This document shows, one piece after another, positions 18,543 to 24,029 of a DNA stretch of 64,000 nucleotides. Below the pieces are notes generated by a model. That model ran no database searches and was not told where the DNA came from. It saw only the letters and a list, made by a program, of their open reading frames with translations. The DNA comes from Nanobdellota archaeon (GTDB lineage Archaea; Nanobdellota; Nanobdellia; Woesearchaeales; GW2011-AR4), in contig JBBSWH010000001.1 of NCBI GenBank assembly GCA_038046385.1, positions 1 through 64,000 of the forward strand. The letters run 5' to 3'. Within the stretch, counting starts at the first letter, position 1, and the number at the start of each line of letters is the position of its first letter. A program made the translations under genes and the position numbers.

Positions 18543-19085
18543 CTATTTATACAGTTTATTTATCAAATCAGCTTTAGTAACCAACCCTACAAAAGTGCCT
18601 TCTTCTGACACAAGAACCATTGGGTAATGCTTCAAAAGATTAGAAACAACCTGTATTGAAGATGTTTTTGACACAATTGGAGGGGATTCCTGCATTATAT
18701 CCCTTACATGATTGGCTTTTTTTTCAAGAAGCGCTTCAAGTATTGTGGATTCTGAAACCATGCCCACAAGCTTGTGGCCATCAATGACTGGAACTTGCGA
18801 TATCTGGAATTTCTTCATTTTTGAGATTGCTTCCTTTACAGGCTCATTTGAAGCAACACTTACTATTTTGGGATTCATTATTTGCCCTGCTTTTATTTCT
18901 TCTTTCTTCTCCAGCTCGCTTAGCGCTTTGAAGATTTTCTGTGTTTTAGTATAAGTCGGGTCTATCCTGCCGGATTCAACCTTTGCAATCAGCGATTGTG
19001 ATACGCCTGACCTGTTCGCAAGCTCTGACTGAGTCATGCCTAGCTTCTTTCTTATTTTTTTTACTTCTTCTAGTTCGTATGACAT
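18543..19085 (-). CDS. XRE-type HTH plus CBS-pair transcriptional regulator
   Basis: RKKLGMTQSELA..SGVSQSLIAKVESGRIDP followed by two CBS domains; start at MSYELE. Confidence 0.9.
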   Translation of the reverse strand: MSYELEEVKKIRKKLGMTQSELANRSGVSQSLIAKVESGRIDPTYTKTQKIFKALSELEKKEEIKAGQIMNPKIVSVASNEPVKEAISKMKKFQISQVPVIDGHKLVGMVSESTILEALLEKKANHVRDIMQESPPIVSKTSSIQVVSNLLKHYPMVLVSEEGTFVGLVTKADLINKLYK

Positions 19086-19284
19086 AACGGCAGACTCCGT
19101 TAACACGTCGCTCAAGTTGGATTTAACAATCCAACGGACATGCAACAAATTTACTTTACTGTACTAGTTAATAATATCTATTATATAAATTATTCCTTTA
19201 GGAATATTTCTGGCAAAAAGGTTTTTAAAAAGAATGGAAGATTAGCCTCTAATGATATTAATTCTTATAAAATGAGGTGGAAAA

Positions 19285-20457
19285 ATGGCTAAAATAACAT
19301 ATGTTACGAGCGAGAGTGTTACAGAAGGGCATCCGGACAAGATATGCGACCAGATAAGCGATGCAATACTGGATTCATTATACGCGCAGGATCCTTATTC
19401 AAGAGTTGCTGTTGAATGCTTGACCACAACAGGCCTTGTTGTTGTTGCAGGCGAAGTAACCACAAAGGGATACGCAGACATACAGGGCATTGCAAGAAGA
19501 ACTTTAAGGGAAATTGGATATACAAATCCTCAATTTGGAATAGACTGCGAGGATGCAGGAGTGCTTGTTTCAATTCACGGACAAAGCCTTGACATAGCAC
19601 AAGGTGTTAATGAATCCGGCAATAAAGAGCAGGGAGCCGGAGACCAGGGAATGATGTACGGGTTTGCGTGCAATGAAACTCCGCAATTAATGCCTTTGCC
19701 TATAATGCTTGCGCATGGATTAACAAGAAAGCTTGCAGAGTGCAGAAAGAAAGGTGTCATTACAGATCTTGGACCTGATGGAAAATCACAAGTTAGCATA
19801 GAATACCATGACGGTGTTCCAAAAAGAGCAAGTGCAGTTGTCATAGCGCAGCAGCATCTTGAGCATATAAGCGAAGAAAAATTAAAAGAAGAGATTCTTG
19901 AAAAAGTTATAAAACCAGTATGCGGAACTTGGATGGATAAAAACACAAGCGTGCACATCAACGCAACAGGCAAGTTTGTTATTGGCGGGCCTGAAGGAGA
20001 TTCTGGAGTTACAGGAAGAAAAATAATTGTTGACACTTATGGCGGAGTTGGACGCCACGGCGGCGGAGCTTTTTCCGGAAAAGATCCAACAAAAGTTGAC
20101 AGGAGCGGAGCATACGCTGCAAGATACGTTGCAAAAAACATTGTCGCAGCCGGATTGGCAGACAGATGCGAAGTCCAGCTGTCTTATGCAATCGGAGTCG
20201 CGCAGCCAACTTCAGTAAACGTTGATACGTTCGGAACAAATAAAATTCCGGAAGAAAAAATTGTTGAGCTTGTCAAGAAACACTTCAAATTAACTCCTAG
20301 ATGGATAATCGAGCACCTTAACCTTAGGAGGCCTATCTACAGAAAATCTGCAGCCTACGGCCATTTTGGAAGGGAAGACCCTGATTTTACGTGGGAGAAG
20401 ACAGACTTTGCAGAAATCTTGAGAGCAGAAGCCGGATTAAAGGGAAAATCAAAGTAA
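19285..20457 (+). CDS. metK: S-adenosylmethionine synthetase (bacterial/eukaryotic-type MAT)
   Basis: [37 protein letters not shown]. Confidence 0.97.
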
Positions 20458-20550
20458 AATAAACCAATACATTTTTATATTTCTTTTATTTTCTTTTTCT
20501 TATGAGCAGCAGTCCTAGACTTGGATTTTGGTTTCTTTAATTAGTTAAAA

Positions 20551-20610
20551 CTCTGCTATAAGCATTATTTCTTCAAAATCAAAGTTGCTGCGAAAGGCTC
20601 GAGTTCTGGA
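20551..20610 (+). promoter_or_regulatory. Conserved 60-nt leader element, candidate cis-regulatory RNA (copy 1)
   Basis: 58/60 identical to 21109-21168. Confidence 0.55.
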
Positions 20611-20646
20611 ATTTTATAAAATAAACAACAGGAGGAAGACTATAAA

Positions 20647-20985
20647 ATGAATCAATCAAATAAGGAATTGGATTTAAAAGATGCAGATGGAAAATTGAAT
20701 TTGGCATCGGCATTAAGAGTGAATCAGAGCTCTGTAAATGGGCTGTGGAAGCAAATTAGAAAATCAGATGAAACTTCAAGAATAGTAGTGCTTGAAGTAT
20801 TGGCTGCCAAGCTTGCAAGGGATTTTGAGTTTGTTAGCAACTTATCAGAACGTGAAAAGCTGGATTTTTTGGCAAGAATGTACAAAATTTCACCAAGAGC
20901 AGTAATCCCTTTGGTAGATTATAGCGGCTCAAGAGCAGACACCCAGAAGCAGGAATTAGAAGGCGGACGGTACTTCAACAGCTAA
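20647..20985 (+). CDS. Hypothetical protein, tandem paralog 1 (112 aa)
   Basis: About 52/112 identical to 21231-21569; AGGAGG SD-like motif upstream. Confidence 0.8.
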   Translation: MNQSNKELDLKDADGKLNLASALRVNQSSVNGLWKQIRKSDETSRIVVLEVLAAKLARDFEFVSNLSEREKLDFLARMYKISPRAVIPLVDYSGSRADTQKQELEGGRYFNS

Positions 20986-20992
20986 ACTTTTG

Positions 20993-21014
20993 ATAGGCGA
21001 AAGCCTATTTTTTT
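20993..21014 (+). terminator. GAAA-loop hairpin plus T-run
   Basis: ataggc GAAA gcctat tttttt; a similar copy follows paralog 2 at ~21576-21596. Confidence 0.55.
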
Positions 21015-21108
21015 ATTTTTTTAGAAACATTTTTATATCTCCTTCTTTTTCTTTTTCTTATGAGCAACAGCCACATGTTTTGGTTTGGTTATCTGTTTTG
21101 ATTAGTTG

Positions 21109-21168
21109 CTCGGCTATAAGCATTATTTCTTCAAAATCAAAGTTGCTGCGAAAGGCTTGAGTTCTGGA
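21109..21168 (+). promoter_or_regulatory. Conserved 60-nt leader element (copy 2)
   Basis: 58/60 identical to 20551-20610. Confidence 0.55.
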
Positions 21169-21230
21169 TTTAAATTTGACAAATTTTTTACTTTTATCTG
21201 ATACGAAACTAAACGACGGAGGATAATGAA

Positions 21231-21569
21231 ATGAATCAAATAAATAGGGAGTTGGATTTAAGAGATATAAATGGAAGAGATTGTTTAGCTTCGCTTTTGG
21301 GGCTTGATACATCTCCAATGGGTGGCCTGTGGAAAAAAATAAGCACAACACAGGAAACTGAAAGAGTAAACAGACTAAATGTGCTTGCTTCGCAGCTTGC
21401 AAGAGATTTTGAGGAAATGAATGGAGCACCTAAAGCAGAAAAATTGGCAATACTGGCAAGAAGATATAGAATCTCACCTCAGGTTGTACAGCCTTTGATA
21501 AACTATGACAATTCAAGAAAGCCACAGCCAATTGCTCTAGAACCAAGCGGATGGTATTTTGTAGAATGA
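21231..21569 (+). CDS. Hypothetical protein, tandem paralog 2 (112 aa)
   Basis: Paralog of 20647-20985; GGAGG SD-like motif upstream. Confidence 0.8.
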   Translation: MNQINRELDLRDINGRDCLASLLGLDTSPMGGLWKKISTTQETERVNRLNVLASQLARDFEEMNGAPKAEKLAILARRYRISPQVVQPLINYDNSRKPQPIALEPSGWYFVE

Positions 21570-21594
21570 CTTTTTAAGGGCCGAAAGCCTATTT

Positions 21595-22464
21595 TTATAA
21601 TTTTTTAAACTTATACCCAATCATCTTGTAGACTATTCTTGAGCACATGAAGTCAGGCGCATGAAGATTTTTAATCGGAGCAAGCTCAACCAAATCGCAG
21701 CCGACAACGTTCTTCTTTTCAAACACTTTCTTCAGAAATCTCATGGTTTGATAATAACTCAAGCCGCCAGGCTCCGGTGTTCCGGTTGAAGGCATTATGC
21801 TTGGGTCCAATCCATCCACATCAAAAGTTATGTACACATCATTGCTTAATCTGGAAATTGCTTCGTCAAACCATTTGTCATTGTCAACAATGTCGCGCGC
21901 CCAGAAGATTTTAAGGTTTTTTTCCTTTACATAGTCTGCTTCTTCTTCGCTTAAGCTTCGTATTCCAACTTGAACAACATTCGCAAATTCAAATGATCTT
22001 TTCATGGCGCAGGCATGGCTGTGCTTTGAATCTTCAAATTCTTCCCTTAAGTCAGCATGCGCGTCAATCTGTAATACACTTAGTTTTGGATATTTCTCGC
22101 TATAAGCCTTTACTATGCCGCTTGTTATTGAATGCTCTCCTCCGAGTGTCACAAGGAATTTGTTATCAGAAAGAATCTTTTTTGCGTGCGAATAAGCAAC
22201 ATCAGCCATTTTATTGGCATCTTCATTTGTTTTTAAGTCTTTAAGCGTGCATATTCCGCATTCATAGACCGCGCCAATTTCATCATCATATAACTCCATC
22301 TCATGCGAAGCTTCTATTATTGCAGAAGGGCCTTTCTCTGTTCCTTTTCCGTAAGAAGTTGTTTTTTCGTAAGGAAACGGAAGTATAGCTGTTTTTGATT
22401 TCCCGTAGCTTGAGTAGTTGTCTGGCAAATCTCCAAAGTTCCCGTGGCTTTTTACGTATTCCAT
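21595..22464 (-). CDS. speB: Agmatinase
   Basis: GGEHSI, DAHADLR, DVDGLDP..MPSTGTPEPGG. Confidence 0.93.
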   Translation of the reverse strand: MEYVKSHGNFGDLPDNYSSYGKSKTAILPFPYEKTTSYGKGTEKGPSAIIEASHEMELYDDEIGAVYECGICTLKDLKTNEDANKMADVAYSHAKKILSDNKFLVTLGGEHSITSGIVKAYSEKYPKLSVLQIDAHADLREEFEDSKHSHACAMKRSFEFANVVQVGIRSLSEEEADYVKEKNLKIFWARDIVDNDKWFDEAISRLSNDVYITFDVDGLDPSIMPSTGTPEPGGLSYYQTMRFLKKVFEKKNVVGCDLVELAPIKNLHAPDFMCSRIVYKMIGYKFKKL

Positions 22465-22513
22465 TTATTCTGTGAGAATGGATATGCTTATAAATATTTT
22501 CAAATTCAGCAAT

Positions 22514-23002
22514 ATGATGAAGAAAACCATTGTTAAAAAAATTGGCAAAAAGGGAAAGGGAGTATTCGCCCAAAAAGACTTCAAAAAAGGAGAACTCATT
22601 CTTGCTATCAAAGGAAAAGTTGTAAGCTCTGCAAAAGCAGATTCTATGCAGCATTACTACAGGAATCACATATGTGTTGTTGGAGATGATGAATGGGCGC
22701 TGATGGGAATTCCGGAGCGGTATATCAACCATTCATGCTCTCCAAATGTTTTTGACAAAAAAAGAAAAGTCTTTGCGATGAAAAACATCAAAAAAGGAGA
22801 AGAGCTTGCTTTTGACTATTCAATCAATGGGCCGGATGGCGAAGACTGGAAGATGAAATGCCACTGCAAAAGCAAAAACTGCAGAATTAACCTGAACGGC
22901 GAGTTTTTCAGCCTTCCGAATAAACTCCAGAAAAAATACCTGCCTTATCTTGACGAGTGGTTTAGAAAGAGATACAACGATAGAATAAAAAAATTGGGAT
23001 AA
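22514..23002 (+). CDS. SET-domain protein-lysine methyltransferase with post-SET Cys motif
   Basis: GKGVFA, RYINHSCSPN, GEELAFDY, CHCKSKNC. Confidence 0.88.
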   Translation: MMKKTIVKKIGKKGKGVFAQKDFKKGELILAIKGKVVSSAKADSMQHYYRNHICVVGDDEWALMGIPERYINHSCSPNVFDKKRKVFAMKNIKKGEELAFDYSINGPDGEDWKMKCHCKSKNCRINLNGEFFSLPNKLQKKYLPYLDEWFRKRYNDRIKKLG

Positions 23003-23141: not shown

Positions 23142-24029
23142 CTACTTCTGGAATTTGAAAAGCATTTGCTTATCGAATCCCCACTGCTTTTTCCAGTGAT
23201 CGCATGATGATAAAAAGTCAACGTACCTCACTTTCTTGGCTATTGCGTTCTGTATATCAAGAACTACCATCAGCTTGCCTATGTTTGGGATTTTCTGGTT
23301 GTTTGCAGAGCCTGTAAGGACATGATACCAATTCTTATGCTTGAATCCAACGTCAACAGCTTCCACTTTGCCGTTTACCTCAACGCTTATCATCTGAAGT
23401 GTTCTTTTCTTCTGAGCAGCCAGTATCATCTTTTTTACTCCTCTTTTAAGCCATTCCCGTTTGTAGACAGAATCATCCTCAAATTGCTTTATGTTCAGCT
23501 GAACAAGCCTCTTGAAATCACGGGTTCTGTTGTAGTATACTTTATATTTCGGAATTTTCTTCAAATCACTCCTAAAATTTTTTTGTTTTTTCTTTTCGAA
23601 CGAATTAAAATATTTTTCAAAATTGTACCCGTACTTGGCAAGGTCAATGTAGTAAGTGTACTGATCTTCTGAGAAGTTGTAGTATTTTGCCTCTTTTGGA
23701 TCAATTCCTTCTATGAGTGTTTTATCTGGGCATTCATTTAGAAGATTTCCAAGCTTGGACTTATCGTTGAAGAAAAATGCGTTTCTTTCCGGGAACCATC
23801 CTCCGAAATACGAGTAGTCATTGTCTTTTTTTGAATATGCAAGCGGTATGACGCCGACAATCTTTCTCTTGTCGCGGCCGACGATGAAATGCGGCTTTGC
23901 CTCCTGCCTGTCGTAGAAGCACGCTCTGTAGTCCCAGCTGTCAAACATATGCTGGTTCGGGGTAAAATGATTCCATAATCTTGCGCAGTCGTTTATACCG
24001 CGGTATACTTTTAGTTCCATTACATCCAC
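23142..24029 (-). CDS. GNAT-fold protein (CelD/Acetyltransf_6-like)
   Basis: IVGVIPL, NIGKLMVVLDIQNA, VDFLS..DHWKKQW. Confidence 0.7.
   Translation of the reverse strand: MDVMELKVYRGINDCARLWNHFTPNQHMFDSWDYRACFYDRQEAKPHFIVGRDKRKIVGVIPLAYSKKDNDYSYFGGWFPERNAFFFNDKSKLGNLLNECPDKTLIEGIDPKEAKYYNFSEDQYTYYIDLAKYGYNFEKYFNSFEKKKQKNFRSDLKKIPKYKVYYNRTRDFKRLVQLNIKQFEDDSVYKREWLKRGVKKMILAAQKKRTLQMISVEVNGKVEAVDVGFKHKNWYHVLTGSANNQKIPNIGKLMVVLDIQNAIAKKVRYVDFLSSCDHWKKQWGFDKQMLFKFQK

Follow-up and report, generated by a model that had tools for sequence, protein, structure and literature searches.

Near-identical 60-nucleotide leader blocks ahead of two diverged orphan genes in an archaeal tandem array: a possible case of control through a leaderless mini-ORF

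Between the metK gene and the convergent agmatinase gene (speB) of a Nanobdellota archaeon lies a two-copy array in which a non-coding block of 60 nucleotides (nt), almost unchanged between the copies, precedes each of two diverged genes for proteins of 112 amino acids (aa). The array was analysed within a 64,000-nt stretch of DNA, here called the window (assembly GCA_038046385.1, contig JBBSWH010000001.1, positions 1 to 64,000). Its left neighbour is assigned to the MetK family TIGR01034 with 560 bits, and its right neighbour to the agmatinase family TIGR01230. The two units stand head to tail (20469-21026 and 21027-21610), and each comprises, in the 5′ to 3′ direction, a TATA promoter, a short open reading frame (mini-ORF), the 60-nt block, a GGAGG Shine-Dalgarno (SD) sequence, the 112-aa ORF and a terminator (Table 1). 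The 5′ ends of the units form a 145-nt direct repeat (20469-20613 versus 21027-21171), and the alignment is weaker over the remainder. The tandem cassette of mini-ORFs, blocks and 112-aa ORFs described in a first-pass annotation of this DNA is borne out, with every one of these elements in its place. The same annotation ended each unit with a GAAA-loop hairpin and a T-run, which holds for terminator 1, whereas the corresponding site of unit 2 is weaker and received no call in the terminator scan. This second site abuts the stop codon of the convergent agmatinase gene.

Table 1. Positions of the features of the tandem array in the window, including a junction scar at its left edge
Feature	Positions	Strand	Description
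Junction scar AAAATCAAAGTAAAATAAAC	20445-20464	+	overlaps the metK stop codon
Unit 1 promoter ACATTTTTATAT	20469-20501	+	TATA at 20472-20479, then a 22-nt pyrimidine-rich spacer
Mini-ORF 1, MSSSPRLGFWFL then stop	20502-20540	+	12 codons; ATG at the inferred transcription start
Conserved block, copy 1	20551-20610	+	starts 10 nt past the stop of mini-ORF 1
ORF 1 SD, GGAGG	20631-20635	+	11 nt ahead of the ATG
ORF 1, 112 aa	20647-20985	+	rare orphan family, helix-turn-helix-like fold
Terminator 1	20992-21019	+	7-bp stem with GAAA loop (20992-21009), then T-run; called by the terminator scan
Unit 2 promoter	21027-21059	+	TATA at 21030-21037, then a 22-nt spacer
Mini-ORF 2, MSNSHMFWFGYLF then stop	21060-21101	+	13 codons
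Conserved block, copy 2	21109-21168	+	starts 7 nt past the stop of mini-ORF 2
ORF 2 SD, GGAGG	21218-21222	+	8 nt ahead of the ATG
ORF 2, 112 aa	21231-21569	+	paralog of ORF 1, 47% identical
Terminator-like site 2	21578-21597	+	about 4-bp stem, CGAAA loop and T-run, by reading

The two copies of the block are identical at 58 of their 60 positions and have an exact 45-mer in common (20555-20599 and 21113-21157), whose two matches were reproduced in none of 100 shuffles. The first-pass annotation held that this non-coding segment is far more conserved than the proteins, and the comparison stands: the products of ORF 1 and ORF 2 are identical at 52 of 110 positions (E 3e-33). Their coding sequences have diverged to a synonymous distance (dS) of 0.73 by LWL85 and 1.14 by NG86, with a nonsynonymous distance (dN) of 0.50-0.54; third codon positions are identical in 59 of 112 cases, and the best 60-nt window between the coding sequences reaches 44/60. 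Because the paralogs have drifted this far apart, the likeness of the blocks is more than chance, and it exceeds the level of neutral sites by far.

Conservation between the units is a mosaic. The promoter segments agree at 31 of 44 positions and the segments from the mini-ORF ATG to the block at 36 of 54 alignment columns, while the spacers from block to ORF start agree at only 27 of 62 columns and the terminator segments at 34 of 43 positions. The block is an island of near identity whose flanks have drifted to roughly neutral levels. All other islands conserved between the units are known signals, namely the TATA box, the start of the mini-ORF, the SD with its start codon, and the terminator. 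The block also keeps a short distance from the mini-ORF stop codon in both units (10 and 7 nt), whereas its distance to the SD varies (20 versus 49 nt). Attempts to read the block as coding sequence were rejected. Entry into the block frame by a +1 shift out of the mini-ORF is blocked by a TAG at 20542-20544. One plus-strand frame is open in both units, with no start in unit 1 and with both of the block differences non-synonymous, and the ORFs on the minus strand differ between the units.

The upstream part of each unit has the layout of a leaderless gene. TTTTATA occurs at 674 sites in the genome, and at 32 of these an ATG follows at +22 nt. Fifteen of the 32 open ORFs of at least 80 aa, whereas offsets outside 21-25 give 0-6 such ORFs, so a TATA element with an ATG after 22 nt is the modal leaderless spacing of the genome. 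The ATGs of mini-ORFs 1 and 2 both occupy exactly this position, which makes the leader mini-ORFs proposed in the first-pass annotation plausible. A promoter with the same ACATTTTTATAT, similar to that of unit 1 over 38 nt, precedes a leaderless 188-aa gene on contig 5, and several other long ORFs of the genome share this arrangement. Because both mini-ORF ATGs stand at +22, transcription would be expected to begin at or next to the corresponding AUGs. An AUG at the 5′ end of a transcript is an archaeal signal for leaderless translation, and the mini-ORFs are probably translated from that end.

Both mini-ORFs retain M-S-x-S and an identical in-frame TTTTGGTTT, which encodes F-W-F (overall pattern MS.S…FWF), a run of aromatic codons of the kind seen in leader-peptide attenuators. 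Between them are two synonymous changes, AGT/AGC and CTT/CTG, and indels whose lengths are divisible by three, a pattern that fits coding constraint in what is a small sample. Further downstream, GGAGG followed by ATG after 7-11 nt is enriched ahead of long ORFs genome-wide. Since both 112-aa ORFs lie inside this range (11 and 8 nt), their spacing would imply a leadered mRNA, with the block in it, as the template for their translation. In a same-species metagenome contig (1133 nt), the sole differences from the window are at 21035-21036, within the TATA box of unit 2, where AT is replaced by TA (TTTTTATA becomes TTTTTTAA). Two explanations offer themselves: polymorphism of the promoter, or a sequence error in a contig of low coverage.

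The genes that flank the array appear to say little about its function. Searches recovered metK from 39 of the genus's 43 genomes, the window's own among them. Usable flanks were available at 27 congener loci, where a wide variety of genes lie close downstream of it. By their translations, these include ORFs that resemble agmatine deiminase, agmatinase and deoxyhypusine synthase. Searches for the 112-aa protein in 36 congeners and in 24 genomes of the order's other families gave no match. Judged by this comparison, the 1.14-kilobase cassette that separates metK from the agmatinase gene is an insertion peculiar to this species. Because no such insertion is found in the 36 congeners, the metK/speB neighbourhood is incidental, and the earlier suggestion of S-adenosylmethionine (SAM) or polyamines as ligands, which was drawn from that position, loses its basis.

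Is the block a folded RNA? Among the possibilities offered in the first-pass annotation were a riboswitch-like element, here taken as a sensor of SAM, a polyamine or an aromatic amino acid, and a Phe/Trp leader-peptide attenuator. In favour of such readings stand the aromatic F-W-F codons in both mini-ORFs. A weak post-hoc hint comes from the two block differences (positions 4 and 50), which lie opposite one another in the outer stem of the minimum-energy fold, giving U.C for unit 1 and G.U for unit 2. The fold itself is unremarkable. The CTC/GAG pairs at the block ends and the internal GCA/TGC pairs that had been pointed out do appear in it, but it is no better than those of shuffled sequences: z is -0.03 and +0.36 for the two blocks alone and +0.06 and +0.85 for the opposite strand, while the complete leaders fold worse than shuffles (+0.79 and +1.51). 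A cmscan of 19000-23000 on both strands against 4227 Rfam families gave no match at E<=10. For an attenuator, alternative hairpins are lacking, no terminator-like hairpin with a U-run was found between mini-ORF and gene, and covering the mini-ORF does not consistently open the SD. The gene under control would, moreover, encode an orphan protein of helix-turn-helix (HTH) type rather than a biosynthetic or other metabolic enzyme, and proximity to metK and speB is an accident of insertion. We consider both forms of this proposal very unlikely. The absence of a predicted stable fold in block and leader fits a single-stranded platform rather than an aptamer.

Two further known classes of element were considered for the block and rejected. 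As a C/D-box small RNA (sRNA) it would be about 109 nt long, with a 5′ AUGAGCA and a 3′ CUGG that are poor matches to the C and D box motifs. As an integron attC site it would be expected to carry the core GTTRRRY, and its sole GTT lies in GTTGCTG; neither strand has a hairpin above background and no block follows the last gene, although no search for an integrase was made.

A separate sRNA gene, made up of promoter, mini-ORF and block and ending at the U-tract after about 115-135 nt, would leave the 112-aa ORF to a weaker promoter of its own. A strong promoter with a highly conserved body does resemble an sRNA gene, U-tracts follow the block in both units (T4 at 20613-20616; T6 at 21184-21189 plus T4), and a TATA-like TTTTATAAAA lies between block 1 and ORF 1. 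A transcript started from this internal site would, however, leave the well-spaced GGAGG of both ORFs upstream of its 5′ end, and the internal TATA-like sequences fall in the spacer that is not conserved between the units (27 of 62 columns). The candidate RNA belongs to no Rfam family and has no stable fold, and a search for targets that the block might pair with in trans found only chance matches of 14-20 nt in its own genome. An independent sRNA thus seems to us rather improbable.

The proteins encoded downstream were assigned to no family in Pfam, NCBIfam or PHROGs. Among 1.84 billion representative sequences, 13 proteins matched at E<=0.001. One of these (P0001) is the window's own protein, two (P0002 and P0012) are frame-shifted versions of ORF 2, and a 1038-aa repeat protein (P0009) was set aside as spurious. 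The real relatives number nine and are 98-122 aa long; one comes from a metagenome-assembled genome named Candidatus Nanoarchaeia. In other public assemblies of the organism, ORF 2 is broken by frameshifts (P0002, P0003 and P0012), for example at the A-run in TGGAAAAAAATAAGC, which looks like assembly error rather than biology. No match was obtained when the protein was compared with phage records, plasmid records and viral contigs, when the ESM Atlas was searched for matches of at least 0.9, or when one relative (P0005) was searched against a collection of genome contigs.

A profile of the family (A3) found members in 1 of 401 genomes of the phylum and 1 of 401 of the class, in each case the window's genome alone. 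Among 401 genomes of the order it matched three: the window's genome, G569 and G507. The match in G507 spans 45 residues (E 6e-4) inside a 563-aa frame and was not counted. In the family to which G569 belongs, 1 of 3 genomes matched. The G569 homolog is about 39% identical to the window's protein and is part of an operon-like cluster, with a 4-nt overlap onto the end of a 109-aa HTH-like ORF and, after a gap of 5 nt, a 192-aa unknown ORF. This tight three-gene cluster (286-1561 of locus L054, from G569:C5) adjoins a gene that, by reading, resembles the alpha subunit of phenylalanyl-tRNA synthetase. The neighbours of the G569 homolog have no match in the window's genome. The family is rare and patchy, as expected of an accessory or mobile gene, and it looks horizontally acquired.

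An AlphaFold2 model of the protein has five helices, with a predicted local distance difference test score (pLDDT) of 82.5 and a predicted template modelling score (pTM) of 0.70. Foldseek returned no match for it at E<=0.001. VIA-align superposed residues 46-107 on sigma-70 region 4, DeoR-N and LuxR-type domains with Z of 5.0-6.6; 33 chains reached at least 5 (best 6.6) and none reached 8, a range that the tool regards as common and not distinctive. Below the Pfam thresholds, the 11 members of the family match HTH families only (YdaS_toxin in 3 of 11; HTH_Tnp_1, HTH_23 and MerR in one each). Judging from the model and these weak matches, the 112-aa proteins are probably small DNA-binding proteins of HTH type. 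They resemble Cro-like, sigma-70 region 4-like and transposase N-terminal HTH proteins in being all-helical and about 110 aa long, with a C-terminal three-helix unit that superposes, and differ from them in having no match at a curated threshold.

If the proteins bind DNA, then the block might be their own operator. Located at +50 to +109 relative to the inferred transcription start, it could be bound by one or both 112-aa proteins and serve autoregulation by roadblock, an arrangement that would account for the same sequence ahead of both genes and would give the HTH-like C-terminal half, as well as the exclusively HTH character of the weak Pfam matches, an obvious use. The sequence of the block does not encourage this idea. 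It is long for a single operator, and it contains no clear dyad or helically phased repeat, only TCAAAA/TCAAAG and arms of 3-4 nt. At the variable positions of its putative recognition helix, one paralog differs from the other, and every fold match lies below Z 8. On balance we judge an operator improbable.

We tentatively favour a different role, in which the block acts in cis as an unstructured stretch of the leader, is coupled to a leaderless upstream open reading frame (uORF) and is kept alike in the two units by concerted evolution. A rare orphan gene of HTH type was inserted between metK and the agmatinase gene in one species, where it now forms an array of two copies, each of them its own transcription unit with a strong archaeal TATA promoter. 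The RNA would start at or next to the AUG of the 12- or 13-codon mini-ORF, which would be translated from the 5′ end. The leader would continue beyond the mini-ORF stop codon, 7-10 nt before the block, and through a U-tract and GGAGG to the 112-aa ORF. The block would be the core of this leader, largely single-stranded and acting as a sequence-specific cis element rather than a folded aptamer, and its availability would be set by the ribosome that finishes the mini-ORF just upstream. As a platform for loading or binding, for instance, it could determine whether transcription or translation proceeds into the HTH-type gene. Concerted evolution between the leaders would maintain the near identity of the two blocks. 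The mosaic conservation, the coincidence of the remaining islands with known signals, and the fixed position of the block after the mini-ORF stop codon favour selection.

Several observations weigh against this proposal. At 97% identity the block surpasses even the promoter, and such a value would sooner be expected from recent copying than from prolonged purifying selection. It is known from two copies in one species only, which places covariation and conservation across taxa beyond reach. Apart from the two copies and a scar at the metK stop codon, the genome contains nothing of it. Among 69 other genomes of the family no full-length block was found; AT-rich matches of 16-38 nt occur in 41 of them, the best of which covers 29 nt (E 9e-5). 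The covariance model R1 gave no credible match in 149 genomes of the order. Its weak matches, in 4 of the 149, score 21.6-28.1 bits, against 97.5-97.8 for the true copies, and the best of them (in G519) spans the end of a 155-aa ORF and was judged to be chance. In G569 the model has no match at E<=1. An exact 21-mer of the block has no match in the genome contig collection or the viral contig collection; an exact 20-mer has a single viral match, which is unrelated beyond about 22 nt and was dismissed. The public sequencing runs that contain the stretch are 14 DNA runs from 6 studies, none of them on record as RNA. In four low-share DNA runs, where stretches without read cover carry no meaning, only short pieces identical to the window and the metK genes of other organisms were seen, with no diverged relatives. 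The leader also gave no consistent sign of switching in silico. Pairing of its 5′ 49 nt with the block is predicted at -22.3 and -17.9 kcal/mol, values reached by 108 and 516 of 1000 shuffles, and masking of the mini-ORF, as by a ribosome, did not alter the accessibility of the SD in a consistent way at either 37 or 15 °C. Finally, the homologous locus in G569, the sole one within reach, has neither a mini-ORF nor a block. The first-pass annotation had proposed that homologous genes without the block would indicate a recent local gene conversion. Such a gene has now been found, and it makes a weak test, with a protein that is only about 39% identical and sits in an operon-like cluster.

The main rival is a plain account in which the block has no function of its own and is a recent gene-conversion or template-switch patch, copied from leader to leader within an old, diverged duplication. 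Its identity exceeds that of every functional island of the unit, the promoter (31/44) included, and it has no predicted structure, no occurrence in the other genomes and collections searched and no counterpart at the G569 locus. Copying is also supported by the scar. AAAATCAAAGTAAAATAAAC consists of two pieces of the unit 1 leader placed end to end, the block core (20575-20585) and the segment before the SD (20617-20626), with the 32 nt between them absent. The gapped local alignment score of 15.45 was reached by none of 3000 shuffles and by 3 of 3000 39-mers drawn at random from the genome with similar AT content. As read from this alignment, the scar shows recent short-patch recombination inside block sequence.

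The placement of the block is harder to reconcile with conversion alone. The tract is short and sharply bounded by diverged sequence on both sides. For conversion to occur, its ends must already have been similar. Its location, precisely between the stop codon of the mini-ORF and the U-tract with the SD, is not a random one, and there is no spill-over into adjacent sequence. Conversion is, furthermore, compatible with function. We regard a functionless patch as a serious alternative, somewhat less likely than the leader segment. The block may be a selected cis element, a recently copied patch, or both.

The 3′ end of metK itself (20430-20464) looks remodelled, in that its last codons and the first bases past its stop codon constitute the 20-nt scar. 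The encoded MetK has 390 aa and ends in …EAGLKGKSK. A longer tail, KP(L/M)(K/R)AE…, is present in 21 of 27 congeners, and two of the 27 (L026 and L040) end about as the window's protein does.

How does the proposed uORF-coupled leader compare with known systems? The trpL and pheL attenuators place a short ORF with consecutive aromatic codons ahead of the regulated gene. The aromatic-codon mini-ORFs of the array share this feature, and they differ in having no alternative hairpins, no hairpin-plus-U terminator and no biosynthetic gene downstream. In the tnaC leader of Escherichia coli, a short leader peptide with an essential Trp has its stop codon directly before unstructured RNA that loads Rho and can be masked by a terminating or stalled ribosome. 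The array likewise has a Trp-containing short ORF whose stop codon comes just ahead of an unstructured segment, whereas its mini-ORFs are half as long and no tryptophan-related gene follows. To our knowledge there is no Rho in archaea, and an archaeal termination factor would have to fill its role. Riboswitches and other cis-regulatory RNAs of Rfam are similar in that a non-coding stretch of the 5′ leader is conserved; the block departs from them in lacking an Rfam match, a fold above background and any phylogenetic spread. Concerted evolution of tandem paralogs also offers a parallel, since a short near-identical tract stands within a diverged duplication and a recombination scar lies nearby. 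Here, however, the tract is not an arbitrary one, since it matches a discrete non-coding module located between the mini-ORF stop codon and the SD region.

Leaderless short-ORF attenuators in mycobacteria are reported to begin with the 5′-terminal AUG of a polycistronic transcript, to be rich in Cys codons and to precede cysteine-related operons (bioRxiv 10.1101/834739). The array resembles these attenuators in carrying a short ORF with a run of codons of one class upstream of the presumed regulated gene, and differs in that the run is F-W-F, the gene is an HTH-type orphan, the organism is a probable archaeon and the system is known from sequence alone. These mycobacterial attenuators and the tnaC leader are the nearest analogues in logic. 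A narrow search of the literature found no description of such a module in archaea.

Taken to its limit, the analogy would make this array the first archaeal case of leader-peptide control. A ribosome terminating or stalled at the leaderless F-W-F mini-ORF would mask the unstructured 60-nt platform just downstream and thereby determine if expression of a mobile HTH regulator is cut short by an archaeal termination or decay factor, in the manner of tnaC and a Rho-loading site but without Rho. Alternatively, the mini-peptide and the HTH-type protein might be a signal and its receptor that diversify together. We offer either version as a long shot. If block and mini-ORF are functional, they would represent a compact and testable instance, in an archaeon of DPANN type, of leader control that depends on a uORF. 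For this group, hardly any cis-regulatory RNA or regulation coupled to translation has been described. The module would be tied to a very rare orphan family of HTH type. If the block is a mere conversion patch, then the locus is still a clear, small case in which short-patch recombination has remodelled the 3′ terminus of a housekeeping gene, metK, and its wider interest is limited.

Some observations concern the surroundings of the array. A second, distant metK-like gene lies outside the window in the same genome (G000:C1:139195-140262; 35% identity, E 4e-46), and similar second copies occur in a few congeners. Divergent from metK in the window is a gene with HTH and CBS domains (18543-19148, minus strand), which is conserved upstream of metK in most congeners; tblastn found it with 63-79% identity at 25 of 29 congener loci (L025-L053). 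This gene may be a metK-linked regulator. Beyond the agmatinase gene, the ORFs at 22418-23002 (plus strand) and 23142-24029 (minus strand) have no NCBIfam family. The first of these overlaps the start of the agmatinase gene by about 47 nt and, by reading, carries a SET-domain-like Cys motif at its C terminus.

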